From a virus, in IMG/VR virus record IMGVR_UViG_3300022696_000071, positions 1-41,747 of that record: a stretch of 41,747 nt of DNA; one strand, written 5' to 3'. Below, piece after piece: positions 6,001 to 34,601 of the stretch (positions are counted from its first letter, which is position 1; each line of letters begins with the position of its first letter). A program made the translations under genes and the position numbers. The notes beneath the pieces are model-generated. The model was not told the DNA's origin, ran no database searches, and saw only the letters and a program-made list of their open reading frames with translations.

Positions 6001-8145
6001 ACCAAGTGTTGTCTCTGTAGCTGGAACAAATTCACCCGAAGCAGCATTCCATGCTAATATTTGAGCATCGGTTACAAATCTATGTGTTGTATCTTCTTCG
6101 ATGATTACAGCAGGGTGAGTAGATGGATGAACATAATTATTTGCATTAGCTTGTATATTATCTAATTTATATTTATAATTATAATCAAAATTATATGATG
6201 ATTGTAAATCAGCATTTAATGTTCCATCTTGTTCAACAGTTAATCTATCACCTACTTTTATTCCACCAAGATTTGTGGCAGTAGCTGGAGCTAAATCTTC
6301 TTTCGTATCAATCCATTCAGAACCAGTATATATAAACCATGTACCATCGTCTTCACTAAATAATCTTGTTCCAATAGGAATAATATATGTTGATGTACTT
6401 GGAAATACAGATGTTGCTTCATATCTATTTCCAGATTTTACTAACCATTTATTTTCATACGTTGGTGTTTGATAACCATCTCTCGTATACCATCCAATAA
6501 ATACATACATGTTACCATCACCAGTTGGACCACTGGCAACGACAAGTGTACCAACATCTGCTGTAGCTGGAAGGTCTGCCCTGCTGTCTATAATTAACAA
6601 CTGTTGCATTACAGTAGGTTCAGCAAATTCAACACCAGACTCACTTGAATTAACTCTTAATATTTTATGGCGATCACCAGTATAATTAGAAGCATTAACA
6701 TCAGATAAATCTATAAGATTACGAATATCATCAACAAATTCAAGACCATTTTGATTATAGTTTACTCTTGGTACTTTATATCTTGATTGAGCATAACTGG
6801 TTGGAACATCAGATAATTCAATAAATTTTATACCAGAAGAAGATCGATCAACAAATTCAAGACCAGATTCATCACCAGCAACAGCTACGAGTCTATTTGC
6901 TTGACCAGCGTATGTGGAAGGAGTATCCGTAAGATCAACAAATTCGTATACGCCATTCGGGTTAAAACTTTCAAATCTTAATCCATCTTCTGTTTCATTT
7001 ACTATGAGAATTTTACCCGATTGATTGGTATAATCATTTGGTAAATCGACAAGACTCGTAAATCGATTATTATCTCTAATATTACCAAGTAACCACCATG
7101 AATCTAATGTAGTAGATCCATCTGGTACAGTATAAACTTCAGTTGGAACATCATCTATAAAATCTCTTGCAATTCCAGATGATATTCTTATTTCATCCAT
7201 CCATCCAACGAATGAATCACTTGTATTTTCATCATAAGATCCAATATATAATGGACCATAAAAATAATCAAAAGTGTCATATATTGAAGATGAAATAAGA
7301 ACACCATCAACAATTAATCTAAATACTCTATCACCACTAATTTCATCAATCTCACCAACAATTGCAATATGATACCAAGTATCAACTTCAAATATTATAC
7401 TTCCAACAATACCAATACTTCCAGTATCAACTGTATCATGTGTAAATTCTAAATGATGATTTACATTATCATATTCTAATTTCCAAAAATCAGATACATT
7501 CTCTTTCTTTCTGGAAAATAATACTTGAGTATTATTTAATTGTTCGAATCTTATTCTGAAATCTATTGAGAACTCATATTCATCAAATGAGAAATCATCA
7601 GAATGTTCAATTTTTAATCCTGATATAGCTTGATCACCATTAAATTTTATACTTGTATCACCAAATACTTTTTGATCATTACTATGTTCAACACTTCCAA
7701 AAAATGTAATATCATGATCACTTTGACTTGAATCTTCAAATTCTTGATTCCCATCAACCGAATCACTATGAATCATTAATGTGGTGAAACTATCAACTCC
7801 ACCTATTGGAATAGTTTTTTTCTTATAAACATCTTTTGTTATTGTATTTATATAATGATTACCTTCAGACCCCAATGTAGATGGCGGGACAGTTGTTCCT
7901 TCCAACCATCTATTCGGAAGACTGTATTCATTTAATTCTGATAATATTTTGTCAGAAGACCAAGTTCTATGGGCAGATATAACACCATCATCTATACTGG
8001 AAAATTTATGCATGACGCCTTGATAATCTTTTACATACCAAGACTTTGTTTCGTCATCAAACGCAGATTCTCGTTTTTTAAGATCAGTTTCAACTACTTC
8101 ACCGGAAACTTTTGTTTTTAAATATATTTTCCTAAATACAGGCAT
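1..8145 (-). CDS. Giant tail-fibre/adhesin-like structural protein, N-terminal >2700 aa; the 3' end lies beyond the window start
   Basis: ATG at 8145 (minus) preceded by AAGGG. The minus frame with codon tops at multiples of 3 is consistent at 8145, at ~4800 and at nt 1-30, and no complete minus-strand ORF is listed across 1-8145, so the frame stays open to the window edge. Translation shows tandem ~41-aa repeats with a DTPSSYSGQxGKxxRVN...LEF core, recurring HPxTHP(P/A)S motifs, a short collagen-like GPRGLKGDDGDAG segment and two paralogous beta-rich lectin/LamG-like domains (e.g. GVWHLN, GAVYHMN). Confidence 0.72.
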   Translation of the reverse strand, partial: MPVFRKIYLKTKVSGEVVETDLKKRESAFDDETKSWYVKDYQGVMHKFSSIDDGVISAHRTWSSDKILSELNEYSLPNRWLEGTTVPPSTLGSEGNHYINTITKDVYKKKTIPIGGVDSFTTLMIHSDSVDGNQEFEDSSQSDHDITFFGSVEHSNDQKVFGDTSIKFNGDQAISGLKIEHSDDFSFDEYEFSIDFRIRFEQLNNTQVLFSRKKENVSDFWKLEYDNVNHHLEFTHDTVDTGSIGIVGSIIFEVDTWYHIAIVGEIDEISGDRVFRLIVDGVLISSSIYDTFDYFYGPLYIGSYDENTSDSFVGWMDEIRISSGIARDFIDDVPTEVYTVPDGSTTLDSWWLLGNIRDNNRFTSLVDLPNDYTNQSGKILIVNETEDGLRFESFNPNGVYEFVDLTDTPSTYAGQANRLVAVAGDESGLEFVDRSSSGIKFIELSDVPTSYAQSRYKVPRVNYNQNGLEFVDDIRNLIDLSDVNASNYTGDRHKILRVNSSESGVEFAEPTVMQQLLIIDSRADLPATADVGTLVVASGPTGDGNMYVFIGWYTRDGYQTPTYENKWLVKSGNRYEATSVFPSTSTYIIPIGTRLFSEDDGTWFIYTGSEWIDTKEDLAPATATNLGGIKVGDRLTVEQDGTLNADLQSSYNFDYNYKYKLDNIQANANNYVHPSTHPAVIIEEDTTHRFVTDAQILAWNAASGEFVPATETTLGVIKVGDRLSVEVDGTLNADLQSDENFTTALKNKLEGMAPSGLSPATIADLGGIIVGERLSVEVDGTLSANVQSDNNFTDALKNKLDGVDDSANYYVHPSTHSASMITTSTSRRFVTDAQIALWTAGGSVEWDNITSKPSVFPPDTHYHDFVDLTDSPANYTGQAGKILQVNSGEDGLEFIDNPGSVDDGDWSSADSPPGNWSDTHNHGVTFDAVVSTTSVNSTFRYVIPSSELSTSGTSIRLKFQSIEGYTLYVYKCYVGHASQTVGADTFDFDGNQVQMSVNEETSFYITNGETVTTDIETFTLDPTRNLIVAMYVADFGHLSKSSLTGNCSYYFKNGDYSYQTDVASGGWVQSSNIYAFISEIEVKTSDTGSDGDYYLDTGTGDIYKKITGVWTKQGNIRGPRGLKGDDGDAGSTTFIGLTDVPSSYSTYANKRVTVNATADGLVFSDKYEHPSTHPATIITQDTTHRFITDAERIAWNAAASGSIPPATTSTIGGIIVGDRLTVAIDGTLDADVQTDNNFTDALKSKLDGIASGANNYTHPVTHPPSIIAEDSNNRFVTDAQIAQWNSGSATNFTDLSDTPANYSGHSQKLVRVNAGETALEFVDSTAGGGSGVDEFIELTDTPGSFTANKYLKVNAGATALEFVDEPSGVDTFLGLTDSPGSFSGHGLKVVRVNSGANALEFNTPTFLDLNDTPGSFIANRYVKVNSAGNALEFTDSTAGGSDVDEFLELIDAPSSYSGQSLKLIRVNAGETGVEFTDPYTHPATHPPSIIAEDTNDRFVSDSQISTWDGKPDNFLELPDTPSSFSGQSGKNIRVKSTEDGLEFYDSTAGSGSGADTFIELTDTPVSFSGNEGYVVRVNESGTALEFFDSTTDFTGYDEFIELADTPSSFIGQGSKILYVADNELSVDFKDPTFIDLTDTPASYPEAAGTWARRIDITINSLLVDEDLTDFPIMLDLTNHTEIFSIISDSDKLKMSARVYDSTSDSETECYVEIDHYDSTSNTGILWVKVPNVSSTEDTVLRLYYDDTQLDNTTYVGVTESVAAQNVWDSNYIGVWHLNAEDPSVTDSVKDSTQNNNDGNTPTSNKPTLVDTDRLGKGYEFYSHYGSDAPRIACDCVGITNTKYTVEITAKPVVTAVNDGLWCISDGNSESARNDLRIYDGDMDNRVTTVTIMGYPMPDAGQWHTFGTTWDFDGNSFVSYLDGAIVDTSSSTRSAAGGLDTFSIGAWNYYGSWNTEATVISDVRLSNGVRSYAWMKASAYNSNDGLVSFAENVTLFNPQVVLANNSGVTFEEIDNFLNLYQLIDTPNSYTGQSGKVLSVKSTEDGIEFTTPTVTDEFLDLTDTPSTYSGSEGYNVRVNQSGTALEFYDSTSDGGSGVDEFIELIDTPSTFSGQSGKSIRVNQTENGLEFYDSTTDFTGYDEFVELIDTPSSYSGQAGKNIRVNQTETALEFYDSTADFSSYDEFVELTDTPSSFSGHGLKVVRVNIDEDALEFYDSTASDVDEFIELIDTPSSYSGNELKSIRVNQFGTALEFYDSTASGGSGVDEFIELIDTPSSYSGYERYNVRVNNDGTGLEFYDSTTDFTGYDEFLELTDTPSTYFGQSGKYLIVNPGETAITFTDSAGGDGGASDFLDLTDTPSEYPLSGNWSNRYTMTIDSSNIDADLIDFPIRIDLSNMTDVFSELSDADKLKMSVRHYDSTSSETECYTEIESYNSSAQTGVLWSKIPSISSSQDTTIYLYFDKTRSDNSTYIGVLGSTPAQTVWSNDFGAVYHMNQDPSQAGGDEIKDSTVNANHGSCIGGDVLTSVSTTYCDTGVQFVGGGNTSSIGAIQISSPLNVNKNVGTHQATMKTGSSWDTIICNYYSSTSSEYDRFYQGVNSSGDQFFVTDRLNNVDGNSLLTSNHWYNVACTFDFDNDNYEFFYSGVSNGAFTPNYNAPSTLLGYMIGSMLVGVGGWFRVGDATFAELKISNVVRSDAWIKATYLSDYDQLITYGTSES
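1085..2110 (-). repeat. Tandem ~123-nt (41-aa) coding repeats inside the fibre gene, about 8 copies (DTPSSYSG..GK..RVN..E.GLEFYDST..DEFIEL unit)
   Basis: A GAATTCATC / AAATTCATC landmark recurs every ~123-126 nt (about 1222, 1348, 1476, 1598, 1722, 1848, 1975). The translated units are near-identical. Confidence 0.7.
3215..4290 (-). repeat. Second array of the same ~41-aa repeat family inside the fibre gene, interrupted by an HPxTHP motif block
   Basis: Same DTP(S/G)S(Y/F)SG...(L/V)RVN...ALEF units in translation. The DNA blocks GATGGTGGATGAGTG(G/A)CAGGGTGAGTATA at 3685-3712 and 4352-4380 encode YTHP(A/V)THPPS. Confidence 0.6.
6605..7065 (-). repeat. Third short array of the ~41-aa repeat family near the N-terminal part of the fibre gene
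   Basis: Translation gives repeated ...LIDLSDVNASNYTGDRHKILRVNSSESGVEFAEP... type units. Confidence 0.45.
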
Positions 8146-8176
8146 TATATCTACCCTTTTTTATAATAGCTTAATA

Positions 8177-8530: not shown

Positions 8531-8587
8531 TATAATACCCCCCTCATAATAAAAATGTTTAGAGTTTGTCCTTAAATTTCAACTAAC

Positions 8588-11500
8588 TTACTTATTTAAT
8601 CTTTGAGCAATTATATCCACATGATGTGAATATGCATGGAGAGATTTACATGAAAATGAAAGTGGTCCAGAGTTAATATCAAGTTCCCCGGCAATATATT
8701 CATTCAACAATGTAAAACCGCCCATGTTACATGGAAATCCAGAATTTCCAGTAACAGATATTTTATCATTTCTTCTCATAAAAAAATTTGTATTTCTATT
8801 TCGTATACACCATATCCTACCATCATATTTACGAATAGGCAATTTACCATCAACAAAATAAGTTCTATTAAATGATGCTTCTTTCCTATTAGATACATTA
8901 ACACATCCAGATTCATCATTTATTTTCGCTTGAAATCCCAAAGATAATGCTAATCGTTGAAACCAATCTCTTTTTTCTTTATCTTGTGAATAAAAGCAAT
9001 ATGCTGTATGTTTAAAACTACCATCACCTTTTATCATTGCAATAAATATTGACATTCTATCATCATAAGTAAGATTTAATAATTCTTCTGTTGGTCTTCT
9101 ATTTGGAATTATTTCTTTTATCCATTTAGTAGATTTAGCAGAAATATAAAAGTTATACATTTCAACAAGTAAACCATCTGGATACTCTTTATCTGCAATT
9201 TTATACATTGTCTTTGATTCAAATTTTTCAGTAAAGTTCATACCAGATTCAGTTAATAATTCTCTTATATCAACATGGTACTTCTTAGCACTTTGATAAA
9301 TATACACACCATCACATTTTTCTAAATAATGTGAATCAGTTAAAATCCAACCAATTAGAGATGCCTTTACATAACCCAATTCCCATGTTCCTTCTTTATA
9401 TGGTGCTGAAACTGGTATAAGTGATCCATCTTTTGGTATTAATTCATCTGCCTTAGTATATTGATAATCTTTAATAATTCGTTTATTTCCAGAATGTGTA
9501 ACATATTTATGTAACATTCTATGGTTTGGAGTTATTAATTGAGATATATTTGCAGTTTCTATTTCATACATATCACCACTATAATTAGATTTAATTATTT
9601 CATCAATATTACAAAATTCCATTTCCCATTTATCTATATTTAATGTAGCCGCTTTATCATCTTTAGATATAGTATCTATATTGCGCCATCCATTATCTGT
9701 TAATATTTCAGAATCATCACTCAAACAATATACATCCCAAGAATTATGGGTCATAATTGGTATATATCCACAACAAAATAAATGAGAATCAGAATCAACA
9801 GATATATCATAAACATTTCCGAAATTAAGTATATTACTAACACTTTTTATAGTTCTTAGTATATAGTCACCTTTTCTTAATTTTGGACGATTCTTACTCA
9901 TATTATATATACTAAAACACCCACTACTTTTTATGTATCTATTATCTTTTCTGAAATATACAAGTCGTTCTGGTTCTCTATAAATTGAAACATTTTTATT
10001 CACCATTTTACTTAAATATGACATATCAATTATAAGATCATTACTTGCTGAACAACAAGTATCACCAGAAATCCACCCATCTAAAAAAGAATTTATAAGT
10101 TCATTAGAAAGTGAAAATACAATATTTGGAACTTTTTTCGATTTAGCTCCATGTTTAAATCCTAAATTTTTATACATTCTTACAAGAAAACCTATTGATA
10201 TATTTAAAACTTCACATCCATCACGATGTTCAATAGATGGTGTATAATCAAATTCATTCTTAAGAAAATTTATTACCCTATTAAAAGTATCAGTCTTTTT
10301 GGAATTTATAGCTATTCTAAGACTACTTGAATTATTACCATACCAGCCATCTGCGCACCATAAACCCATAAAATACGAAAAATCATTTGAAATTTTAAAC
10401 ATTCTATTTGTTTGTATTTTAAAACAATGAATAGTTAAATTAGATTCATTATATAAATGGCTATTATATGCTTGTTTTATAGATATCATTTTTATATCTC
10501 TATTACTATCAGTATATGAAATGTTATCTTCTTTAAATCTATGAAAATCAGATAATTCTAAATTACAAACTTTAACTTTATTACTATCTTTAAAGATCTC
10601 AAATAAATCAATTACATCTACTGAATTATACTGAAAATCAATACTATATGGCTCTAATAACACATCACCATCAACCAAATCATATACATATTTTAATTCA
10701 ATATTATCATTTTTTAATATTGGAAATCTGTGATTTTCTGATGCATTTATTTTATAACCACCATATATCTCAATTTCTCTGATATCTGATCTATATGAAA
10801 CTTGTGAATCAGTAACATTAGACCATATCTGATTATAATCTTTATCAAATGATATAACTTCCACTGAATCACCACATTTTATATATTGATATATTTCTTT
10901 TATAATAGTTCTTTTTAAAACTGAATTATGTTTTATGATTATTGGTGTATCTCCATCTAAACATCGATATATTACATTAGTTGTCAAATACCCATCTATA
11001 ATTCTAAAATCTAATCCACGTAAACATGGAGAAGTTCCTCTATCCGCTTCACTTATGAATAAAGATTCTGTACCATATGCTTTACATTTATTATTTGTAC
11101 ATACGTTATTGGATGCTTTTTTCGTATGCAACTTTCCACATGTTTTACATTTAAGATATGGTCTATCATATGCACGATTTGAATCAGGATTACCTATTGT
11201 AATATAGCAATGTTCATTTCCGATACCATGTGTTTTAAAATGATTTATAACCCATTCAGTTTGATTATAGCTGCATAAATTCTCATCCCCATAAATATAA
11301 TTTGTATTATCTCCAACTATCCATGTTGCATATCTATATTCTTCATTTGGTTCAAGATTAGAATCCATTATATAATTAGCAAAATATTGATCTATTTCAT
11401 CATCAGTAGTTGGTGGCGGTAAAGATACCCCTTCAGGCATTCTTGGTGATAATGGTCTACTTTGTGGATACCTAATAAAACCAGATGCAAAATCAAAAGT

Positions 11501-11632
11501 AACTCTCTCTGATCCAGCATGTGAACCAGATGTAATTGAATATCTCCTCCCTTCTTTATATAATTGATATAATAATTGATGCCAAGCATCATCCAAATCT
11601 CGCGCATTAATAAAAACTGGTCTAAATTTCAT
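8588..11632 (-). CDS. Thymidylate synthase family enzyme (ThyA / dUMP hydroxymethylase-like) precursor interrupted by two inteins; the spliced product is ~279 aa
   Basis: Extein motifs align to E. coli ThyA: [22 protein letters not shown] ~ [31 protein letters not shown]...[11 protein letters not shown] ~ [24 protein letters not shown] (catalytic Cys); SWDVY|S|GFPCN ~ SCDVF L GLPFN (Asn177 equivalent, so uracil-specific); C-terminal SLHAYSHHV ~ GDTHLYSNHM. The start is assigned to M21 (ATG at 11632) because of a perfect AGGAGG SD 7 nt upstream. The in-frame M1 at 11692 has no SD. Confidence 0.8.
   Translation of the reverse strand: [1014 protein letters not shown]
8744..9727 (-). mobile_element. 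Intein 2 (328 aa) with LAGLIDADG-type endonuclease domain, inserted 5 codons downstream of intein 1 (between DVY and S-GFPCN)
   Basis: Block A [14 protein letters not shown], block B TPNHRML, LAGLIDADG-like [11 protein letters not shown] and [12 protein letters not shown], non-canonical C-terminal ...ISVTGN with +1 Ser. Residues 656-983. The flanking extein residues restore a continuous ThyA motif. Confidence 0.7.
9743..10963 (-). mobile_element. Intein 1 (407 aa) with LAGLIDADG homing-endonuclease domain, inserted between Arg and Ser of the conserved YxR|SxD motif
   Basis: Block A [10 protein letters not shown], block B NHRFPIL, LAGLIDADG-like [10 protein letters not shown] and [11 protein letters not shown]-terminal [24 protein letters not shown] followed by +1 Ser. 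Residues 244-650 of the M1-numbered ORF. Confidence 0.8.
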
Positions 11633-11780
11633 CAACTGTCCTCCTATTGGCTGATATCTCAATTTCTTTATATAATTTTTTAACTTGATCATTTATTTTT
11701 AACAATTCTTCATGTATTTCCCTTATATCTTTTATCAATTTTTGCAACGTAACATGACTATCAAATTGTTCATTACCCAT
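11622..11780 (-). CDS. Possible small protein (52 aa) upstream of and overlapping the ThyA-family start
   Basis: Hand translation gives MGNEQFDSHVTLQKLIKDIREIHEELLKINDQVKKLYKEIEISANRRTVDEI. GAAGGA lies 8 nt upstream. It is below the ORF-track size cutoff and its stop overlaps the ThyA ATG. Confidence 0.3.
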   Translation of the reverse strand: MGNEQFDSHVTLQKLIKDIREIHEELLKINDQVKKLYKEIEISANRRTVDEI

Positions 11781-15953: not shown

Positions 15954-16580
15954 TTAGAATTCTACATGTTCTTTTACTTTAGCAATTATATTATTTTTCA
16001 AAAAAGTTATATTTGATAATTCTTCATATTCTTCAGTATAATTGTTATAAAGTTTATCTAATATATTATCACCAACAGAATTACTTATTTGAATACCTGA
16101 AGTACGTATAATATTGGTTTTTGTAACAGAATTATAACACTTTCTTTGAACAAAAAAGAAATTAAAATCACATTCATATCCAATGAGTTTAAATCCAATA
16201 ACAAGCAAATAATTGGAAGATTTCATTTTACAGTTCTCAATATATGTTCTTTCAACTAAAAACTTATTTAATTTGCGTTCATATGATCTATTAATACCTA
16301 AAAACTTATTAATATAGTCCACTTTTTCTTCTTTTATTGTATTCAATGTTAAGAACATTTTACAGAATTTAGATAATTCTAAATTTCTAAATAACGTTAT
16401 CGATATGTCATTTGGTTCTTTATACGTCTTAAATTGTAAAGATGTTTTTTTATTATTAAATAATATATTAAATAATATTTTTTTATTACTAACATACGTC
16501 ATATATGTATTACATCTATTAAACTTCTTTGGAAAAGATAAACTTATTTTAGTATTGTTGTTCATAATTTTATTCTCCAT
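15954..16580 (-). CDS. Hypothetical protein (208 aa)
   Basis: Listed ORF. Its start overlaps the stop of the upstream 699-aa ORF (coupled). Confidence 0.5.
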   Translation of the reverse strand: MENKIMNNNTKISLSFPKKFNRCNTYMTYVSNKKILFNILFNNKKTSLQFKTYKEPNDISITLFRNLELSKFCKMFLTLNTIKEEKVDYINKFLGINRSYERKLNKFLVERTYIENCKMKSSNYLLVIGFKLIGYECDFNFFFVQRKCYNSVTKTNIIRTSGIQISNSVGDNILDKLYNNYTEEYEELSNITFLKNNIIAKVKEHVEF

Positions 16581-18679
16581 TACATTATATTATCTATGAC
16601 TGAAGTAGGATCTACACCATCAAAATCATTATAATTATCATTGCCGTCAGATACTTCTGTAATGTTAGAATCTTCTTTTATTAATTTAGCAAATTTAAAA
16701 ACTTCAAGTTTGGTTGATAAATTATTATTCATTTCAATCGCTCTTCTTATCTTAAATACTTCTGGAGGAATATCATGATTCATAAAATCATTAACTACTT
16801 CATTAAATGTATTAAATGTTTTAAATTGATTATATAAATCACCATCATTTATATTTTCAATACATTCTAAAAATAATGTTAATTTATCATCTTTATCTGA
16901 AGTATTAATTGTTTGATTTAAATCATTTCGAGCATCAAATGGAACATCGTCATCTTCATCAATATTAGAAACTTCATCATACTTATTAATAAGATTATTA
17001 ACTATATTGCTCTTTACACTTTCAATATCTTTAATTTTTGAAAAATCTGAATATGGTATATCATAATCTGAAGCCAATCTTATTAAATCATTTTTATTTA
17101 TAGAATAACCAGTTTTAATCATATTAATCACGTTAGTTATAAATGATTTAGAATAACCATAATATAAATCTTCAGTTATATTTAAGTTTCCCCCAGTCAT
17201 GGATGAATACTTATCTTCAAATAATTTAACTATCCCATTTTTATTAAAATTCTTAAATTGGTCAAATACATTCTCCAATATTAATTTTGATTCATTTTCA
17301 TAATCGAGAGAAAAAATAAATGGACTAAATAGAATCTTTATAGCAGTATTAATTATCTTATAATTATTTTTATTTGGAACATTATTTAATGCATCAAGTC
17401 TTCTTATAAATAATGAATATAACAAAAATGTAGATGTTAACTCTATACATAAATTGTATAGATATGATTCTTTTGAATATACAATATTATCAAATCTTAT
17501 TATTGGAATACGAATATCAATTTGACCATTATGCTCTATAAATTCTTTTATTTTTGTTTTAATGAGATATGTCATTATATATTGAGAAAAATAATAAGAA
17601 TTTTTATCATCGAATGTTTTAAATATCTGAGCATTATTTGATATATCGAATATTACATCTAATGGTGAGAATGTTATAGTGTCTGAAGATTCAATAGTTG
17701 ATGTAAATGACATAACCCATGAATTAAAATTCATCAATTCACCATCAAATATTTTATATATAAATGGTATGCTACTTCTATTTTCCATATCATTATTGTG
17801 TTTACGTTCTATTTTTTCTAATTCATTTTCTCCATCCAGATTAACATTATTAAACATATTAGATGCTTGACTTATATCTGTAAATTTTTGTGTATAATCT
17901 ACACCATTATAATCATCATCATTTGATTCAACATCATCATTAAATGGACCTTCAAACACATGATTCGCATCAGTTGACTTAATTATTTCATCTGTTTTTT
18001 CATCAGACATTTTCATATTAGTAGTAACTGGTTGTGACTTTATAGAATCTATTTTAGATGACATAACTGAAGAAAATCGTGATAACAATGTTTCAATATT
18101 AAATAATCTTCCATTTATAGATCCCAATAATGATTTACTATGATATTGATTAAATAATATATTTGATATATTAGTATCTATATTACTAAAATCATCACGA
18201 GTATTTTTCAAAAATCTAACCATATTTTTAAAAGATTTACCATTCATCAATATTCTACATTGATTCATATTTGCTATCGGATCAGTAATTATTAATTCAA
18301 GAACTGGTTTATTCTCCATTAATATAAATCTGAATGTCAGATCTTTTTTATTCTTAGAATATACTCTTGAAATGTTTAATTGAGAAGATTGCATAAAAGC
18401 ATTTTTATAATTGTTACTGCTCAATTCATGTAAATCACATAATAATGAAGTTAAATGATTATATTCGAGATCAATATTTATTCTTGGATTGCCAGCAGTT
18501 CTATTATCAATAAGAGTAAATCTTAGTTTAGTTGTTGAGTAATTAAAATATTGATTCTCATCTTTCTCTGAAACATTAAGAGATGAAGCAAAACTTATAT
18601 TTAATGATATAGATTGATTTGGATCTAAGTAGGTGTATGAAGGTTTACTTAGCCAATATGTTTCTCCATTTCTATTCAT
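16580..18679 (-). CDS. Hypothetical Asn-rich protein (699 aa)
   Basis: Long ORF, first gene of the leftward block, with GGGG-containing SD upstream. Confidence 0.55.
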   Translation of the reverse strand: MNRNGETYWLSKPSYTYLDPNQSISLNISFASSLNVSEKDENQYFNYSTTKLRFTLIDNRTAGNPRINIDLEYNHLTSLLCDLHELSSNNYKNAFMQSSQLNISRVYSKNKKDLTFRFILMENKPVLELIITDPIANMNQCRILMNGKSFKNMVRFLKNTRDDFSNIDTNISNILFNQYHSKSLLGSINGRLFNIETLLSRFSSVMSSKIDSIKSQPVTTNMKMSDEKTDEIIKSTDANHVFEGPFNDDVESNDDDYNGVDYTQKFTDISQASNMFNNVNLDGENELEKIERKHNNDMENRSSIPFIYKIFDGELMNFNSWVMSFTSTIESSDTITFSPLDVIFDISNNAQIFKTFDDKNSYYFSQYIMTYLIKTKIKEFIEHNGQIDIRIPIIRFDNIVYSKESYLYNLCIELTSTFLLYSLFIRRLDALNNVPNKNNYKIINTAIKILFSPFIFSLDYENESKLILENVFDQFKNFNKNGIVKLFEDKYSSMTGGNLNITEDLYYGYSKSFITNVINMIKTGYSINKNDLIRLASDYDIPYSDFSKIKDIESVKSNIVNNLINKYDEVSNIDEDDDVPFDARNDLNQTINTSDKDDKLTLFLECIENINDGDLYNQFKTFNTFNEVVNDFMNHDIPPEVFKIRRAIEMNNNLSTKLEVFKFAKLIKEDSNITEVSDGNDNYNDFDGVDPTSVIDNIM

Positions 18680-18770
18680 ACGTATTAATCCCCTTTTTAA
18701 TAATATGTAATAATAAATAAAATAAAATCATATAAGATTTAATAAAAGAATGAAATCTTTTAATCATAAA

Positions 18771-18802
18771 TTTGTCCGCTATAAGTTTTTCAGTACCACA
18801 CT
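18771..18802 (-). promoter_or_regulatory. AGTGTGG-N14-TAGCGGACAAA composite about 90 nt upstream of the 699-aa gene
   Basis: Read on the minus strand: AGTGTGGTACTGAAAAACTTATAGCGGACAAA. Near-identical architecture to 28256-28287. Confidence 0.35.
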
Positions 18803-19968
18803 TTAAAAAATTTAATAAATTATTAAACTTTTTAGATTTTATTTCTAAACCAGTTAACATGTTTAAATTTTGTCCTCCTCCAACCCATAAACAATACATA
18901 GGTCATTATGACTACCGTTTGTCCACATAGCAGCAGCTATTCCAATTTTCAAAATATCTTCTTAAAAGTACCGACTTGACCCAAAAATTGCTCGGACATA
19001 TTCTTAGAATATGATTATGTCACATGTACAATCTACTAATTCCATGTTAACAACATATACAGTTCATTATTAATCTACTTAGATTATAGAATGAATCTAT
19101 ATAGATTAATTTAAAACATTTTAGAATCTTTCATATTAGATTTTAAAAATCTAATATTAATTCTTTCTTAGATACTAAGAAAAAAGAATCTATATTTATC
19201 TAATTAGATTCTTTTAAGATTCAAATGGAAAAACTATTTGAGGTCAAATATTATTACTCGTTTCATGAAGCCCAGGCGTAATGAAACGGACATATATTGA
19301 TATATTCATGAATTATATATGAATGATTCAAAATTCCAAAAAATAATTGATAAATGAAAAATAAATAAAGATAAAGAAATCTAAATTAATTAATTTATAT
19401 CTTATTAATAAAAGAAATTTAAATGATTAATAAAATATGAATAATTAAATTTAAAGTTGAATAAATGATTTATCAATAGATATATATTAAATTTATATAT
19501 TTGATATATTAAACATTTGAATTGATAAATAAATTAGTCAAATTAGGGTAAGTAGAGGTTAACTGCAAAGTTAAAAACCTACCAAAAAACAGAAATAATG
19601 AATCATTGTGTTTCGGATTTTTATAAATAGAGAAGTGGTAGGGAGAAATGATTAGAATCTTAAAGAACTATAAAATTTGTTATTTAACCTTATTTAAGAG
19701 ATAAATTGATCTTAATAGAAAGTTATTAAGAAATTAAGAGTTGGATGTAGATGTTGTATCAATTCACTATCAATATGAATCAACTTGATTTTATTTTAAT
19801 AATTAATCTAATAAGTTAATGTTGCATCAATGTGTATCAATTTAGATAATCATAAATAAATAATCACCAGTTTTAATCATTCATGGCTCAATTTATAGAA
19901 CATATAATCTTCTTAGATCAATTTGATTATTGATGACTCCCTATCGGTCGAGAACCGGCCCTCGAACG

Positions 19969-20006
19969 GTTTTAGAAACTGCAAAACAGACCGCAGTTTC
20001 TAAAAC
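19969..20006. other. Perfect 14-bp stem / 10-nt loop hairpin (GTTTTAGAAACTGC-AAAACAGACC-GCAGTTTCTAAAAC), no flanking U-tract
   Basis: Exact inverted repeat read directly from the sequence. Confidence 0.6.
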
Positions 20007-20146
20007 GCTTCAAGACCTATTATATGTTATAATAATTATATAGAATATACTTCGTATATTAATATGTAAAATAATAACTTAACATATGGAATCAGTACCG
20101 GTCGTGTGAATCTTCTACGGCTTAATCAAGAATCTTTTTATATAGT

Positions 20147-20194
20147 GTTTACTAAGTGATCTTAGTCCGTTCCGTCCTTGATCACTTAGTAAAC
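20147..20194. other. Perfect 15-bp stem / 18-nt loop hairpin (GTTTACTAAGTGATC...GATCACTTAGTAAAC), no U-tract on either strand
   Basis: Exact inverted repeat read directly from the sequence. It lies ~140 nt past the stop of the kinase gene on the minus strand. Confidence 0.6.
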
Positions 20195-20333
20195 AAATCC
20201 GCTCTCTCCATATATTCATAATTTTTTCTTATTAGAATCTTCTGTTAAGCGGAATAGCCCCGACGATTAAGATTCTGATGTGATTCTATTTAGATATGAT
20301 CGCTAGTGGCTAGATTAAAAGTAGATAATCTAT

Positions 20334-21251
20334 TTAGATGAAATGGTCGTGTGCGCGAGTGAAAACATCGCGTGAAACTGATGATGTTTTTGGTTGTTTG
20401 ACGACATATTGTGCACATTCATTTGCTATTCTACATGATTTTTTTATATCTATATCTTGGGATAAACATATTGCCATAACTGATATAACAGTATCCCCTG
20501 CTCCACATACATTATAAACTGGAACTTTTTCTGATGGAATTTTATCTAAAACAAATTCCCTACTATCTAATAACTCCATGCCTTTATCACCTTTTGTATT
20601 GAGAATATACTTCACTTTTGGTGTACCATGTATTGTTCTAAATTCATGAAGTTCTGCATCATTTGGGGTAATTAGAAAAACACCATTATACATATGGGAA
20701 TGAATTGGTTTTGGATCTACTAATATTTTTATATTCTTTTTTATACCTTTAATTGATTTTAATTTAATAAGATCCATTAGTGGTTTACTTATAAGCCCTT
20801 TATTATAATCACTAACAATTATGATATCATATCTATTAAAATCTAATTTTTCTATTATTGAATATTTAGTTTCATCTACTTCATCTATTATAACTTCATT
20901 GTCTACTCGCAAAAGTTGAATAAAATTATCTGAAACAAATCTTTGCTTAGTAGTAGTGATATAATTATCATATTTTAATACAATAGATTCAACATATAAG
21001 TTATTAAGTAAAGTTTTAACAACTTCACCATTATCATCTTCACCAATAGCAGTTATACATTCTACATTTGCTCCAATTTCACATAAGTTTCTTATAACAT
21101 TTCCACATCCTCCAAGAAACAATTCTTCAGATTTAGTGTTTAAAATTGGAATCGGTGCTTCTGGAGATATTCTGTCGACACTACCAATGATATAATGATC
21201 TAACATTATATCGCCAACTACCAATATATTTAAATCACTTATTTTTTTCAT
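20334..21251 (-). CDS. PfkB-family sugar kinase, HldE/RfaE domain-I type (D-glycero-beta-D-manno-heptose 7-phosphate kinase-like)
   Basis: ILVVGDIMLDHYIIGSVDRISPEAPIPI matches E. coli HldE [35 protein letters not shown] ~ GGAANVA. C-terminal VYNVCGAGDTVISVMA ~ VYDVTGAGDTVIGVLA. Confidence 0.8.
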   Translation of the reverse strand: MKKISDLNILVVGDIMLDHYIIGSVDRISPEAPIPILNTKSEELFLGGCGNVIRNLCEIGANVECITAIGEDDNGEVVKTLLNNLYVESIVLKYDNYITTTKQRFVSDNFIQLLRVDNEVIIDEVDETKYSIIEKLDFNRYDIIIVSDYNKGLISKPLMDLIKLKSIKGIKKNIKILVDPKPIHSHMYNGVFLITPNDAELHEFRTIHGTPKVKYILNTKGDKGMELLDSREFVLDKIPSEKVPVYNVCGAGDTVISVMAICLSQDIDIKKSCRIANECAQYVVKQPKTSSVSRDVFTRAHDHFI

Positions 21252-21265
21252 ATTAATATGTCTTT

Positions 21266-21586
21266 CTATCTCGGAATAATATTATAAATTTTTTGTGGAG
21301 TTTCTAAATATTCAACTCGTGTAAATGGAATACTTCTCCAATCTTGTTTATCTAAATCATAAACTCTAAGTAAACCATATTTCTTTATATCACTTAGAAT
21401 TCTTGGAACATTAACATTTTTTGGTCGTTTATCTCTTGGTATTATCTCAAAATCAAGAGTACAATTCATAATTCTCATAGTATTATCTTTTTTAACAAAT
21501 TTAACTGTAACTTTATTAGATGAATTTATTTTGTTAAAAAAATCTAATGCATCTGTTATAGTTGCTCTTTCTTCATTATCTGGCAT
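21266..21586 (-). CDS. Hypothetical protein (106 aa)
   Basis: Listed ORF with GAAGGAG SD upstream. Confidence 0.45.
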   Translation of the reverse strand: MPDNEERATITDALDFFNKINSSNKVTVKFVKKDNTMRIMNCTLDFEIIPRDKRPKNVNVPRILSDIKKYGLLRVYDLDKQDWRSIPFTRVEYLETPQKIYNIIPR

Positions 21587-21590
21587 TGTA

Positions 21591-22268
21591 TTAAATCTCC
21601 TTCTTAAACATCATGATTGAATGGGGTTCTTTAGAAGAATTAAGTCCAGATTTAGCTACCAAGCTAAATTTTACATCTGATGAATTTACAAAAAGGTCTT
21701 CGTATTGCTGTTCTGAGCGAAATGTGATATATTTTGTTGGTTTATGTTCAAGAGTATTTTCTGTAATTAATACATATCCATCATCTTTTAACTCTTCATA
21801 AAATCTGTTAATATAATATTTTAATAAATCTTCATCCATTATGTGTTGAAGAGATACGCATGTCCAAACCAAATCAAATTTATACTCTGAATCTTGTAAT
21901 TCAAAAGTTCCATCATCATTTATTTGTGTAAAAAATACATCATTATACCACGGGAGATTTGTCATGATACGATCATTATTTGGCATAATATCTACACCAT
22001 GATAATCATCAAAATAATCTGAAAGAAATGGTGCCCATCTTCCTATACCACATCCAAAATCTAAAACTTTTTTCTTCTGACGTGGTTTATCTGGTTTGAG
22101 TTGTTTAAGTTTATTAAATCGTTTTTCTAATACTTTACGAATTATATTTCCCCATCTTGTAGTTTCTCGCTTATATCTTTTTTCATCCCAATCGTATCTA
22201 CCAACTACATTTATTTCTTCCATTTCAGCATATCGTTTTTCCCAATATTCTTTATTTGTCTTAAACAT
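21591..22268 (-). CDS. Class I SAM-dependent methyltransferase
   Basis: Motif I VLDFGCGIGRW, acidic motif II (YHGVDIMP) and post-II DLVWTCVSLQHI. Confidence 0.6.
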   Translation of the reverse strand: MFKTNKEYWEKRYAEMEEINVVGRYDWDEKRYKRETTRWGNIIRKVLEKRFNKLKQLKPDKPRQKKKVLDFGCGIGRWAPFLSDYFDDYHGVDIMPNNDRIMTNLPWYNDVFFTQINDDGTFELQDSEYKFDLVWTCVSLQHIMDEDLLKYYINRFYEELKDDGYVLITENTLEHKPTKYITFRSEQQYEDLFVNSSDVKFSLVAKSGLNSSKEPHSIMMFKKEI

Positions 22269-22294
22269 AATACTCTCCTTTTATATATTTTTAT

Positions 22295-23356
22295 TTAGTT
22301 TTTTAATTCTTCTCCAAATACATAATTATGTTTACCAATTGAATTATTATCATATAATATACATTCGCCATTATCATTACATATTATATCTAATAATTCA
22401 TTAGCAACATGATGCCATGTTCTATTATTTTTTACAAACTCTCTACCCTTTTCTCCTATCGCTAATCGCTCAACATAATTATCATCATTTAAATATTTTA
22501 TTAATTTCTGTTTTAAATCAAATAATGATTCAAATACTATAAGTTGTTCTTCGTTTTCTATTCCAAGTCTTGCAGTCATATTTGGTATTGTTTTAGTAAA
22601 TACCATAGATCCACATGCCAATATATTCCATAATCTCAACGATGAATATCCCTCATAGCATCCTCTACTTAAATTTAGAACAGCTTTACTTTTTGAACAT
22701 ATTTCCCTGAATTTATCTGGATATATAAATTGAGTATAACCTGGACCAAAAAATTTAACTTTGAATCCTTCATCTTTCAAATATTTATAAATTACATCAC
22801 GCTCATTATCTCTGCCACCTATAAATGATACATCATATTCTTTTTCCATATCAACTGGTTTATAAGTGTTAATATCACTTCCATCAATTACATGATACAC
22901 ATTTAATTTTATTCTTTTTGCCCATCTTAATGCATTCCCATAACCAGTAGCTGTTCTATAATGAAAATATTTACTGAATTCAAACATACGATTACGTTTG
23001 AGTTGAGGATACCAATCAGGGAACCAATGAAGTGTTCTACAATTTCTTGATGCAAGTTGGATAGTTTGAAGTGGTATATTATTTCCTTTTTGTATAATTA
23101 ATAAATCACATATATTTGATAATCTTATAATTTTACTAACAATAGTATTATAATTTTCAGCCATTTCTTTTCGATAATCGAATTTGATAACTTCTTCAAC
23201 TATTTCATTATCTCTAAAACCTCTCTCAAAATAAATTGAACTAGAAGCTATACTATTAAATACTCCAACTATAGCAACTTTTATTTTCTTTTTACTAAGT
23301 GGTAAACTTTTTCTTGATTTGATCATATGTACATCTGGATTTATTTTTGAATACAT
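22295..23356 (-). CDS. Putative glycosyltransferase (GT-B / CgeB-like C-terminal domain)
   Basis: The C-terminal half resembles CgeB/GT1-type domains (EGYSSLRLWNILACGSMVF...). Weak, by eye only. Confidence 0.4.
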   Translation of the reverse strand: MYSKINPDVHMIKSRKSLPLSKKKIKVAIVGVFNSIASSSIYFERGFRDNEIVEEVIKFDYRKEMAENYNTIVSKIIRLSNICDLLIIQKGNNIPLQTIQLASRNCRTLHWFPDWYPQLKRNRMFEFSKYFHYRTATGYGNALRWAKRIKLNVYHVIDGSDINTYKPVDMEKEYDVSFIGGRDNERDVIYKYLKDEGFKVKFFGPGYTQFIYPDKFREICSKSKAVLNLSRGCYEGYSSLRLWNILACGSMVFTKTIPNMTARLGIENEEQLIVFESLFDLKQKLIKYLNDDNYVERLAIGEKGREFVKNNRTWHHVANELLDIICNDNGECILYDNNSIGKHNYVFGEELKN

Positions 23357-28241: not shown

Positions 28242-28287
28242 TTTGTCCTTTTCAGAGTGTGGATTAATTTTACAAATAGCGGACAAA
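28242..28287. promoter_or_regulatory. Divergent promoter/operator candidate: GGACAAA box (reverse, 28242-28248), AGTGTGG (28256-28262), TAGCGGACAAA box (28277-28287)
   Basis: The exact 11-mer TAGCGGACAAA recurs at 14691-14701 (minus), 18771-18781 (minus) and 28277-28287 (plus). AGTGTGG lies 14-18 nt upstream of the box here and at 18796-18802 (reverse complement CCACACT) and 34611-34617. Confidence 0.4.
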
Positions 28288-28338: not shown

Positions 28339-29568
28339 ATGAACAAGGGTGCAATGCGTAGATTGGGTATAAGTGTAAGAGAAAATGGTCATGTCGATAC
28401 TCTGAAAGAAGTATTGGATGAACCACCGTTTATGGTATTAGCTAAAGTATTACATAATGGATATTTTAATATCCAAGATAAATCAATACAGATTAAAAAG
28501 GGATCTGTATTAGCTATGCCATTAAATTTTTATAATAATTGTCATAGAGCAAGAGAATCTGGAAGAAGAAAACTTCTTAAACCAAACAGAAGACCATTTA
28601 ATTATTATTTTAAAAGATACAGGGGAGAAGATTTAACAAATAAAAAGTTACTAATATGGCGAACTGGTGGAATAGGAGACTTACTTTTCATACAACCCAT
28701 AGTAAAATATATTAAACGAACATATGAAAATGTTCACATAACGATTGCGTCATCTCCAAGATTTACTGATATTTTAGAATGTTGGCCTGATGGATTAGTA
28801 GATGATATAAAATCTATACCATTTAGTTATAAGTTATTAATGAATCATAATTATCATATTACATTTGAAGGGGTTATTGAAAGATGTAAAGAAGCTCAAG
28901 TTAAAAATTGTTATGATCTATTTTCTGAAACTGCTGGATTAGATCTCGATCATACTTCCGATGATAATAAAATAGAACTTGTTTCAGATGATTCATTAAT
29001 ACATAATAATATATTACCAGAAAGTGACTATGTTGTTGCTCAAATGAGAGCAAGTAATCCATGTAGAATAATGTCAACAAGAAAATGGTCACAATTAATA
29101 AATGGTATAACTAATTATGGATTGAAAGTTGTAATAATCGATTCTCCAAAATTTCAACAATTTTATGATGACTTGTTTAAAAATTATACTATAAATAAAG
29201 ATGATGTATTTAATCTATCAGAACATTCTAAATCAATAAAACATGCTGTATCCGTTATAAATAGAGCAAAAGGAGTTATTGGAATAGATTCTTCATTTAT
29301 ACATATTGGAGAAGCACTAAATAAACCAGTGTATGGTTTATATGGTCCATTCACTGCTGATGTAAGAATGAGATATTATAGAAATTATGATTTCAGTGAA
29401 CCAGAAAAAGTAGTATGCAAGTATCAACCATGTTTTTTTCATCAGAATGAAACTAAAAAATGTCCATTTATAGCACAAAGAAAAAATCCTGGCTGTCTTG
29501 AAGAAATAGATATAGAAGTATCAGTAAAGAAATTTATGAATCTTCTTGGAATTACCGATGGAGAATAA
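28339..29568 (+). CDS. GT9-family glycosyltransferase (ADP-heptose heptosyltransferase-like) with an extra ~100-aa N-terminal extension
   Basis: LLIWRTGGIGDLLFIQPIVKYIKRTYENVHITIASSP matches the WaaC/WaaF N-terminal signature (R/K-x-x-x-x-GD-x-L-x-x-x-P...I-x-x-L). The C-terminal Rossmann region has G-rich IGIDSSFIHIGEALNKPV. Confidence 0.62.
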   Translation: MNKGAMRRLGISVRENGHVDTLKEVLDEPPFMVLAKVLHNGYFNIQDKSIQIKKGSVLAMPLNFYNNCHRARESGRRKLLKPNRRPFNYYFKRYRGEDLTNKKLLIWRTGGIGDLLFIQPIVKYIKRTYENVHITIASSPRFTDILECWPDGLVDDIKSIPFSYKLLMNHNYHITFEGVIERCKEAQVKNCYDLFSETAGLDLDHTSDDNKIELVSDDSLIHNNILPESDYVVAQMRASNPCRIMSTRKWSQLINGITNYGLKVVIIDSPKFQQFYDDLFKNYTINKDDVFNLSEHSKSIKHAVSVINRAKGVIGIDSSFIHIGEALNKPVYGLYGPFTADVRMRYYRNYDFSEPEKVVCKYQPCFFHQNETKKCPFIAQRKNPGCLEEIDIEVSVKKFMNLLGITDGE

Positions 29569-29818: not shown

Positions 29819-30595
29819 ATGGAAAAAGAAACAGTTATTCAGTTATTTACTCCGGGATTAGATAGTTATCTTGGTTATCACTATTTATCAAAAAAATACA
29901 ATGTTAAAAGAATATATTTTAAATTGAAATCAAGATATACTGATAATGAGATAAAAATACTCAATAATTTTTATAATGATATTTATATATATGAAAATTT
30001 AAATTTATCTGATATAGAACATGACGATGCATATATACCAAATAGAAATTTATTAATGGCAACATTAGCATCATCATTGTATCCAAATATATCTAAAATA
30101 TTTATAAATGGTATGAAAGATGATAGAGTTAATGATAATAGAGAAGATGTATTTAATAGATTATCTATAGTAGTATCTATGAGTATGGATAAACCGATAA
30201 TGATAACTAGTGAATTCTGGAATAAAGAAAAATCTGAAATGGTATCAACATTTGTAATAAAAAATGAGCCAATAATAGAACATTTAGCAACCAGAACATA
30301 TAGTTGTTTTAGTAAGTTTTTTATATACAATAAAACAAGAATATATAATGGTAATCCAATAGATGGTAAATTTAATAAAAATGGAAGATTAAAAATTTAT
30401 GGATGTTGTTCATGTCCAGCTTGTTTTCGTAGATTTGCGGCATTATCGAATGCAAATATATTTATACCATTTAGAAATGATAATATAGTAGATGGTTATA
30501 GAGGAGATGCTATAAATAAAAATATTCATCCATTCAGATATTTTTCAACACTTGAATATATTAGATTTTTAGATTTTATGAAAGGAGTGAGATAA
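29819..30595 (+). CDS. queC: QueC-like 7-cyano-7-deazaguanine synthase homologue (PP-loop ATPase fold with a degenerate PP-loop)
   Basis: IPNRNLLMATLAS ~ QueC VPGRNLLFMSIAA. C-terminal zinc motif CCSCPACFRR ~ CGECPACQLR. The N-terminal TPGLDS replaces the canonical SGGxDS. Confidence 0.65.
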   Translation: MEKETVIQLFTPGLDSYLGYHYLSKKYNVKRIYFKLKSRYTDNEIKILNNFYNDIYIYENLNLSDIEHDDAYIPNRNLLMATLASSLYPNISKIFINGMKDDRVNDNREDVFNRLSIVVSMSMDKPIMITSEFWNKEKSEMVSTFVIKNEPIIEHLATRTYSCFSKFFIYNKTRIYNGNPIDGKFNKNGRLKIYGCCSCPACFRRFAALSNANIFIPFRNDNIVDGYRGDAINKNIHPFRYFSTLEYIRFLDFMKGVR

Positions 30596-32671: not shown

Positions 32672-32720
32672 AATATGAGCTATGGGAATAATTTATACCC
32701 ATAGCTCATATTTTAATATA
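32672..32720 (+). terminator. Rho-independent terminator (15-bp stem AATATGAGCTATGGG / CCCATAGCTCATATT, 11-nt loop, then TTTAATAT)
   Basis: Perfect inverted repeat followed by a T-rich tract immediately after the acidic-protein gene. Confidence 0.6.
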
Positions 32721-33379: not shown

Positions 33380-33991
33380 ATGTCTGTCATTGGGATACGA
33401 GAAGTCATAAAGATGATAAAAGATGGAGTAGATTTATCTTTAGGTACATTTAAATCAAAATCAGTTAAGAATGTTAAACCATTAATTGAAAATTTTGATA
33501 AAGACGCGATAGTTAAACCAGAAGGAACAACATTCGATGTACGATTAGATAAATTGTTTGAATTAAAAAATGTTGATAATCTCGGAAATACATATACTCC
33601 TGAATTATTAGTTTCTGGTAGAATTACAGCAAATTCTACAGAAATTAGCCCTGATGGAAAACAAATATACTCTATATATCCAAATAAACCATATCTTGTA
33701 ACAACATTAGAAAGATTAAATACTCCAAATAATATCTTTCCAATGTGTAATAGAAGAACTACTATGTTCAGAAGTGGCCTGATTATGCAAATGACAAATG
33801 TATCTCCGGGGTATAGGGGTTATCTGTCATTTATGATATATAATGTACTTAATCACATAGTTCGAATTCAACGTGGTTTTGGAATTGCTTCTATTGCATT
33901 TTTTACAATAGATGGTCGCGCTGTTCCATACGATGGTGTTTGGCAAGAAAATAAACGAATCACAACAACTGAAGAAATAAGACCAAAATGA
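33380..33991 (+). CDS. dCTP deaminase / dUTPase superfamily protein (Dcd-like)
   Basis: FDVRLD ~ Dcd [38 protein letters not shown] ~ [43 protein letters not shown] ~ GMLIGALSF. Confidence 0.65.
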   Translation: [203 protein letters not shown]

Positions 33992-34547: not shown

Positions 34548-34561
34548 CCAATTTCAATGAA

Positions 34562-34601
34562 AAATGGGAAACTGGACTCTATTCCAATTTCCCATTTTTT
34601 G
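34562..34601 (+). terminator. Rho-independent terminator (AAATGGGAAA...TTTCCCATTT stem followed by TTTT)
   Basis: 10-bp perfect stem with an internally paired 16-nt loop, then TTTTTTGTTG. Confidence 0.55.

Follow-up and report, generated by a model that had tools for sequence, protein, structure and literature searches.

The viral record IMGVR_UViG_3300022696_000071 was analysed over its full length of 41,747 nucleotides (nt), called the window below, and our subject is the one long interval in it that carries no gene, at 18680-20333, most of which (18900-20333) had been flagged in an earlier note as a candidate replication origin or regulatory centre. We conclude that this region probably marks the boundary between two operons running in the same direction, and acts as a control region there, in a divergent phage of low GC content whose replication genes are T4-like. 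In kind it is most likely an ordinary regulatory intergenic region of a phage, one that belongs to an unstudied clade. The reading is carried by the anatomy of the gap, the statistical excess of its elements, its conserved position in relatives and the association of one motif with gene starts, from which we infer a promoter role for the motif, an action of the hairpins at RNA 3' ends and the binding of the palindromes by protein. Among the functions proposed in that note, an early-promoter/operator cluster for the leftward operon is the one favoured by the comparative evidence, the gap holding three sense and two opposite-strand copies of a clade motif in the same layout as in relatives.

The gene-free interval and its promoter-like motif

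The claim that the region is free of open reading frames (ORFs) on both strands held up. Throughout the window, only at 18903-20336 do more than 400 nt pass with no stop-free frame of 70 amino acids (aa) or longer, and the intergenic gaps elsewhere all measure at most 130 nt. Reading TGA or TAG as sense opened no frame of 65 aa or more in the gap (the longest has 61 codons), and hidden coding through stop-codon recoding was rejected. A tRNA, a tmRNA or a known non-coding RNA (ncRNA) was rejected likewise: ARAGORN found no tRNA in the gap, and Rfam gave no match at gathering thresholds over the whole window, nor at E values up to 10 over the region, where only noise with E >2 appeared. A search of the gap for pseudogene remnants of the relatives' small genes found none, and no DNA homologue of the gap was detected in phage records or in the fetched loci of relatives. 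To the left, the gap probably extends to 18680, for a total of 1654 nt. The 75-aa ORF at 18672-18899 has no family match, tblastn against the relatives' ORFs finds no homologue of it, and it contains three promoter-like motif copies; we discounted it because of this motif overlap and the missing homologue, and it is probably not a gene. The interval, its neighbours and the motif copies in it are as follows.

18680..20333, no strand: whole gene-free interval (flagged part 18900-20333), the only ORF-free gap of more than 400 nt, with no RNA family
20334..21251, minus strand: gene for a PfkB-family sugar kinase (Pfam PF00294, E 7e-23), the last gene of the upstream operon that runs from 28208 to 20334
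18672..18899, minus strand: 75-aa ORF of doubtful gene status, with no family match, overlapping promoter-like motifs
16580..18679, minus strand: first gene downstream of the gap, for a 699-aa protein predicted to fold as Whirly/PUR (PC4-like type I) at its N terminus and to be helical in its C-terminal part
19288..19301, plus strand: promoter-like GGACATATATTGAT, pointing rightward into the AT tract, against the direction of the flanking genes (13th among about 83,000 positions scored with a position weight matrix, PWM)
18994..19007, plus strand: promoter-like GGACATATTCTTAG, rightward, back-to-back with the leftward 18924 motif (motif scan)
18911..18924, minus strand: promoter-like GGACAAACGGTAGT, sense, distal copy (motif scan)
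18862..18875, minus strand: promoter-like GGACAAAATTTAAA, sense, middle copy (best non-training PWM score, 13.6)
18764..18777, minus strand: promoter-like GCGGACAAATTTATGA, sense, proximal copy, 98 nt before the start codon of the 699-aa gene (motif scan, PWM)

Relatives were needed to judge these copies. Searches with the PfkB protein recovered only non-syntenic relatives, at no more than 46% identity. The clamp loader led to relatives at 48-53% identity, on contigs of up to 335 kb, and these relatives together with two profile scans gave ten further loci that cover all or part of the position of the gap (L091, L092, L093/L094, L095, L097, L099, L100, L102, L103 and L104, compared below with the window as W).

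One word, (C)GGACAAA(T), was strongly and universally enriched in the gaps compared. CGGACAAA has 15 copies in gaps against 0.4 expected from coding DNA, and GGACAAAT is present in all eight gaps compared; over the ten loci, 68 of the 105 copies of GGACA[AT]A fall in the 18% of DNA that lies outside ORFs of at least 80 aa. Forty-three sense, gene-proximal copies, with the consensus GGACAAAtTAaaAA, stand before a ribosome-binding site and start codon at a median distance of 47 nt (range 24-98), and it is because of this position upstream of 43 gene starts across the clade that we read GGACAAAtTAaaAA as a promoter motif. The copies have the features of a promoter cluster, being enriched outside genes, in sense orientation, at a short distance from starts and conserved across relatives. 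The word CCACAC often stands 8-9 nt upstream of GGACAAA, which leaves 16-17 nt between this -35-like element and a -10-like TAAAAA, a spacing that looks sigma-70-like with the GGACAAA box between the two. GGACAAA as the -35 element itself was rejected because the ribosome-binding site lies too near the motif. The motif is therefore best described as a putative promoter with a clade-specific box. Elsewhere in the window, copies at 8571(-), 14699(-), 28248(-), 28281(+), 34637(+) and 36220(-) precede genes; the operon upstream of the gap has no sense copy between 20334 and 28208, and the only one serving it is the minus-strand GGACAAA at 28248. The opposite-strand copies mostly belong to the variant GGACATAT.

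Sequence aside, the layout around the gap is conserved. Relatives keep the gene order 699-like, 208-like, 401-like, clamp loader (the 699-aa protein and its L091 homologue share 26% identity over their full length, E 1e-44), and nine of the ten loci are free of genes over 0.49-1.65 kb ahead of the 699-like gene, or of the one or two small genes in front of it, the positional gaps measuring 487-1495 nt in L091, L092, L093, L095, L097, L099, L100 and L103. Each motif-bearing gap carries three to six motif copies in both orientations and in the same order of elements, with two or three sense copies at the same place in every motif-bearing relative. An opposite-strand GGACATAT and the first sense GGACAAA form a back-to-back pair, 55-145 nt apart, in W, L093, L095, L097, L099 and L104. 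In every locus tested, the GC skew of the central gap is reversed with respect to coding DNA (-0.10 to -0.24 versus +0.23), a reversal that is individually significant in the window only. To the left of the gap, W, L093, L095 and L097 have a co-directional glycosyltransferase/methyltransferase/WYL_2 module and L091, L099 and L100 a divergent operon; since the left-flanking genes vary in this way, the gap is also a synteny breakpoint.

The gap sequences are not alignable between loci, except for two blocks shared by L099 and L100. These non-coding blocks (L099 3745-4101 with L100 2909-3260, and L099 4384-4547 with L100 3649-3806) are conserved at 72% and 79%, as much as the flanking coding DNA. 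The first, ~320 nt long, is a leader that separates the opening gene of the leftward operon from a GGACAAA motif, and is a candidate structured leader or ncRNA. The contig ends of L104 (1-155) and L098 (its start) fall at or just inside the gap region, and may be assembly breaks at AT-rich, repeat-rich DNA.

Hairpins, palindromes and repeats

Inside the gap, we mapped the following elements, from the PfkB gene leftward.

20234..20276, no strand: inverted repeat AGAATCTT-N27-AAGATTCT (fold of 20227-20283, folding free energy, dG, -16.1)
20146..20195, no strand: hairpin with a perfect 16-bp stem around an 18-nt loop, lacking a U-tract on both strands (dG -22.4)
19961..20014, no strand: hairpin with a perfect 14-bp core at 19969-20006 and no U-tract (dG -28.4)
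19757..19841, plus strand: five ATCAA(T) direct repeats spaced by 10-11 bp, in two groups (19758, 19769, 19779; 19826, 19836), from the sequence
19300..19540, no strand: AT tract, 89-91% AT, the easiest DNA to unwind in the window by composition and stability
19259..19288, no strand: hairpin CGTTTCAT-N14-ATGAAACG, adjoining the 19288 motif (fold of 19220-19288, dG -19.6)
19062..19225, no strand: array of AATCTA/TAGATT palindromes, from the sequence and word counts
19072 and 19094: array member AATCTAnnTAGATT, with centres 22 bp apart
19135: array member ATTAGATTTT-A-AAAATCTAAT
19182-19215: array member AAAAGAATCTA-N12-TAGATTCTTTT

The region has four perfect stems of at least 10 bp where 0.34 are expected. 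The longest, of 16 bp, compares with a maximum of 13 among 200 Markov resamples, and no resample reached the length of either this stem or the one of 14 bp. The GC-rich islands that had been noticed against the flanking composition are real (48-58% GC) and turn out to be the stems and loops of the strong hairpins. Three inverted repeats or hairpins follow the stop codon of the PfkB gene (20276-19961), with dG of -16 to -28 kcal/mol and fold z-scores of -5 to -9; the one at 20146-20195 scores -5 to -7 on both strands and the one at 19961-20014 is longer on the minus strand through G-U pairs. Strong hairpin stacks stand directly after the upstream operon in L093, L095 and L097 too, the L093 stack including a perfect 17-bp stem. 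An intrinsic (Rho-independent) terminator consists of a G+C-rich stem followed by a U-tract, and the gap hairpins are not of this kind: a terminator scan of 18000-21000 found no terminator-like site, and after the hairpins at 19969-20006 and 20146-20195 mixed sequence follows on both strands. Searches for exact matches located neither long hairpin in viral contigs; the first was missing from genome contigs as well. The hairpin GTTTTAGAAACTGC...GCAGTTTCTAAAAC was considered as a CRISPR-repeat-like or host-derived element and rejected, being absent from viral and genome contigs and matching no CRISPR direct-repeat model, nor did the region match a repeat array.

The AT tract stands as described earlier, with 89.2% AT at 19300-19530; among all 200-bp stretches of the window, duplex stability is lowest within it, at 19338-19537 (91% AT, z 3.4). 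The plus strand of 19300-19760 is purine-rich, with 47% A, 13% G and 5% C. Five of the eight loci compared have the AT-richest 150 bp of their whole sequence inside the gap. As RNA the tract is unstructured, the centre of the gap from 19900 to 19280 having a fold z near 0, and a large structured ncRNA spanning this centre was rejected for that reason.

Repeated words were the other point of the earlier note, and these do exceed chance even if the count was not exact: for AGAATCT/AGATTCT, given as about eight copies, we counted seven in the gap (five on the plus strand and two on the minus strand) against 0.6 expected. The shorter GAATCT/AGATTC has 10 copies against 1.5 expected (z 7.3) and AAGATTC seven against 0.5 (z 9.5), and the three copies announced for TTGATAAAT are indeed three. 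Of the two perfect palindromes that had been listed, the 21-nt ATTAGATTTTAAAAATCTAAT was confirmed at 19135; the 16-mer TAATCTATATAGATTA does not occur, and the palindrome actually there is the 14-mer AATCTATATAGATT at 19094. The core AATCT/AGATT reaches 11 copies per 200 nt at 19028, compared with a mean of 1.3 over the window and five in the next-best place. The fold z over this palindrome array is equal on both strands, and two of its palindromes have spacers of 2 nt. Such spacers are unable to close the loop of an RNA hairpin, so that duplex DNA sites for a dimeric protein are the likelier interpretation, one that the 22-bp distance between centres also fits. No equivalent AATCTA/TAGATT cluster was found in the relatives' gaps, and by this comparison the dense array is specific to this phage.

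A looser word, AGAA[AT]?TCT, is enriched in the four long gaps only and not in short gaps (observed/expected: W 8/1.1, L091 3/0.8, L099 6/0.6, L100 3/0.8), and may be an optional module of long gaps, though irregularly spaced. ATCAAT/ATTGAT, with 11 copies against 3.5 expected, was not significant after multiple testing and was not enriched in relatives. Two further candidates were rejected: clustering of CcrM-type GANTC sites, which are only 3-fold enriched, below the longer GAATCT, and not enriched in relatives; and the word AGAATCTTTCA[GT]AT as a conserved element common to W, L091, L099 and L100, which for W is at chance level.

Could the extra ~1 kb of the window's gap be mostly non-functional spacer, that is, decayed or inserted DNA at a recombination-prone module boundary? 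Gap length does range from 0 to 1.65 kb, the left-flanking genes differ between relatives as expected of a synteny breakpoint, and the sequence of the centre lacks conservation. Decay, however, would erase palindromes, repeats and hairpins, all of which are far above chance here, no protein remnant was found in the gap and the remainder of the genome is tightly packed; we hold this explanation to be quite unlikely.

The suggestion that the region may encode small RNAs found no support in Rfam or in the fold statistics. A functional ncRNA locus would consist of structured small RNAs from the hairpin region or of a long antisense RNA from 18994 or 19288. It would agree with the fold z of -5 to -9 at 19910-20270 and 19040-19340, with the conserved opposite-strand promoter-like motifs, which predict non-coding transcripts, with the reversed skew of the central gap and with the two L099/L100 blocks that are as conserved as coding DNA. 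Rfam has no match for it even at E 10, the structure is limited to perfect Watson-Crick palindromes with equal scores on both strands, and the 600-nt centre has a z near 0; the window's gap had no alignable homologue in our searches, which made a covariation test impossible. A functional RNA as the role of the region is thus unlikely.

In the control-region model that we prefer, the elements would work in the following order. A nine-gene sugar-modification operon would start at the 28248 motif and end with the PfkB gene, and its RNA would then reach the stack of long hairpins at 20276-19961, which, though devoid of a canonical U-tract, may terminate the transcript, process it or stabilise it. 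Next would come an AT-rich, unstructured and untranslated spacer of ~700 nt, and then the AATCTA/TAGATT array at 19225-19062, whose palindromes could be bound, as duplex DNA, by a dimeric regulator that only this phage would have. Three tandem copies of GGACAAAtTAaaAA (18924, 18875, 18777) would initiate transcription of the conserved 699/208/401-aa trio, which lies ahead of the clamp-loader and primase genes, and the two opposite-strand GGACATAT copies (18994, 19288) would direct transcription the other way, back across the palindromes and the AT tract of the gap, and so yield non-coding RNA.

Several observations weigh against this model. L102 has no gap, and the distant relative L103 has a gap in which the GGACAAA motif is absent. 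Collinear relatives have gaps of 650, 702 and 487 nt, which the window's exceeds two to three times in length, and a simple terminator-plus-promoter model leaves the extra ~1 kb, with its palindrome array, AT tract and ATCAA repeats, unexplained. The opposite-strand motif copies match the downstream TAAAAA part of the consensus poorly. Canonical hairpin and T-run terminators exist elsewhere in the window (32672-32712 and 34560-34599), and therefore the gap hairpins may do something else. Both activities, promoter and terminator, are predicted from sequence only. The terminator at 34560-34599 is bidirectional, with an A-run before it and a T-run after it. Should the control-region reading alone be true, the gap would be an ordinary though unusually large phage intergenic region. 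The analysis provides a first map of putative transcription signals of an uncultivated clade of large low-GC phages that have T4-like replication genes, with a clade-wide promoter motif, operon boundaries and a divergent promoter pair.

Replication, the 699-aa protein and the genome around the gap

The gap had originally been proposed as an origin on the basis of iterons next to a DNA-unwinding element, and as stated this is not supported. In an iteron-type origin, a phage or host initiator would bind the AGAATCT/TAGATT or the ATCAAT repeats and melt the adjoining AT tract. The repeats do exceed chance, AGAA[AT]?TCT is enriched in the other long gaps (L091, L099, L100) as well, five ATCAA repeats stand at helical spacing, an unwinding element adjoins the repeats in the form of the AT tract (19338-19537, 91% AT), and T4 oriE has iterons, of unproven role (PMC3016281). 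The reading fails because of the length and phasing of the repeats, the initiator and the DnaA boxes. The cores are 6-7 nt long, in both orientations and at irregular spacings of 21-475 nt, where helically phased direct repeats of 12-22 bp would be expected; no Rep/O/RepA-like initiator family was found among the neighbouring proteins; and a DnaA-box cluster was rejected, the window having 22 boxes against 19.5 expected, with one in the region. The densest array is absent from relatives, the short gaps are without the motif, and a 12-mer that L091 has in common with the window is, by an estimate from base composition, no more than chance would give. We consider an origin of this type very unlikely. 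The GC-skew check gave no turn at the gap: the cumulative skew of the whole window has its minimum at ~28 kb, which tracks gene orientation, since the genes from 8177 to 28208 are all on the minus strand and those from 28339 on mostly on the plus strand.

A T4 oriF/oriG-type origin, added to the control role, is possible but in our judgement not probable. T4 oriF and oriG, of ~100 bp each, combine a promoter that depends on a phage factor with an A+T-rich unwinding element, have no sequence motif in common and act through R-loops (PMC3016281). By analogy, the GGACATAT transcript from 19288 would form a persistent R-loop in the AT tract, the RNA would be processed to prime the leading strand, and the Whirly/PUR-like 699-aa protein could hold the displaced strand. 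The promoter-like 19288(+) motif adjoins the least stable DNA of the window, and the strand corresponding to the RNA is 60% purine. The AT-richest 150 bp begins 13-71 nt downstream of the opposite-strand GGACATAT in W, L093, L095, L097 and L099, that is, this order is found in all five loci that have an opposite-strand GGACATAT inside a complete gap. The central GC skew is reversed in every locus tested, the gaps of L091, L099 and L100 lie at a point of divergent transcription, and the polymerase, clamp loader and primase genes of the phage are T4-like. The next gene is predicted to have a single-stranded nucleic-acid-binding fold, from a family with duplex-destabilising members (PMC7549692).

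Against such an origin, the adjacency of motif and AT tract is nearly unavoidable in short gaps, and AT-rich DNA upstream of promoters is common. The window's flanking genes are co-directional and the cumulative skew minimum is at ~28 kb instead, a location at a shift of transcription direction or skew being a tendency of the oriF/oriG type and no requirement. L102, moreover, has no gap, and the opposite-strand motif is the weaker match to the promoter consensus. A bolder version, in which the gap would be the early origin of an undescribed clade of large phages, with a conserved GGACATAT promoter writing the R-loop and the Whirly/PUR-like protein opening the origin or stabilising the R-loop, is doubtful. 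The 699-aa protein with this predicted fold was found in this clade only, and to our knowledge no promoter-primed origin with a dedicated PC4-fold partner has been described for phages. In these genomes, the gap is the single site at which an origin that combines promoter and unwinding tract in the manner of T4 could be tested.

About 50 cluster representatives out of 1.84 billion belong to the 699-aa family, which was invisible to a word-indexed protein search. No Pfam or PDB sequence match was obtained for it, even with a 38-sequence profile; when profiles of the 699-, 208- and 401-aa families were compared with PDB, every match had E >=0.1 and none was credible, and a search of BFVD returned uncharacterised proteins only. 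With the 38-sequence alignment, AlphaFold2 reached a mean predicted local distance difference test (pLDDT) score of 78.7, against 32 from the single sequence. The modelled N-terminal fold appears to be of the PC4-like type I, and would imply binding of single-stranded nucleic acids by fold only. Proteins of this type are binders of single-stranded DNA or RNA, several of them with a duplex-destabilising activity (PMC7549692). The modelling thereby gives a putative Whirly/PUR-like fold to a conserved orphan family of about 50 clusters that always follows the gap region. Since the 208- and 401-aa families are unassigned, we do not call the trio a replication operon, only conserved genes before the clamp loader and primase.

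The phage genome is low in GC, at about 25-28%. The window encodes a family-B DNA polymerase with ~29% identity to polymerases of T4-like cyanophages, together with a gp44-like clamp loader and a primase. It also has genes for several sugar-modifying enzymes. Sugar kinase, WYL_2, methyltransferase, glycosyltransferase and GT9 heptosyltransferase genes, as well as 7-deazaguanine genes (QueC-like, QueE-like) and a dCTP-deaminase-like gene, are found at 20334-23356 (-), 28339-29568 (+), 29819-30595 (+), 33380-33991 (+) and 38837-39610 (+); taken together, they suggest hypermodified DNA. The thymidylate synthase of 1034 aa (8588-11692, minus strand) contains an intein (Intein_splicing E 6e-13) with a LAGLIDADG domain, and those of relatives are plain, of 270-284 aa. 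A giant stop-free frame of more than 2719 codons (1-8160, minus strand), with one DUF2341 match, exits the window at its start, and relatives have large DUF2341/Laminin_G_3 proteins nearby. Contigs of related phages (P0006, P0007; L095 is GCA_023136675.1 JAGLQU010000449.1) have been deposited inside metagenome-assembled genomes of Candidatus Peribacteraceae, of the candidate phyla radiation (CPR), a placement that is either mis-binning or a hint of the host.

Comparison with known systems

Compared with Whirly, MRP1/2, Pur-alpha and the PC4 homologue of phage T5, the 699-aa protein has no sequence similarity to them, and in its model it adds a helical extension of 440 residues to the PC4-like type I fold. 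As in the iteron origins (lambda ori, P1 oriR, R6K gamma and the T4 oriE repeats), short repeats stand beside an AT-rich tract in the gap; unlike them, it has no direct repeats of 12-22 bp in regular phase, no recognisable initiator and no DnaA-box cluster.

The promoter-stem-loop cassettes (PeSL) of T4-type hyperplastic regions, reportedly described by Arbiol et al. in 2010, are said to be repeated cassettes flanking small ORFs. They resemble the gap in placing promoters and stem-loops at boundaries where the gene content of related phages varies, and they differ from it in that the gap is one large ORF-free region whose hairpins are not repeats of one another.

The T4 origins ori(uvsY)/oriF and ori(34)/oriG have a promoter dependent on a phage-specific box directly before an A+T-rich unwinding element, an arrangement to which the candidate promoter and the AT tract of the gap would correspond; they too are located near operon boundaries (PMC3016281), and the phage studied here has a T4-like polymerase, clamp loader and primase. 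They measure ~100 bp and have been proven by plasmid replication and R-loop mapping, whereas the corresponding element here would cover ~250 bp of a 1.65 kb gap and is known from sequence. The box differs also, being a MotA box in the T4 origins and the motif GGACATAT in the gap, and the window's flanking genes are co-directional. Finally, the putative GGACAAA promoters resemble the T4 middle promoters, which combine a MotA box with a sigma-70 -10 element: in both, a clade-specific box is joined to an A/T-rich -10-like element, in the sense orientation and upstream of many genes, and is conserved across relatives. The MotA box of the T4 middle promoters is at -30, and the GGACAAA box stands directly against the -10-like TAAAAA, its own position being about -21 to -15; unlike these, the GGACAAA promoters often keep a -35-like CCACAC.

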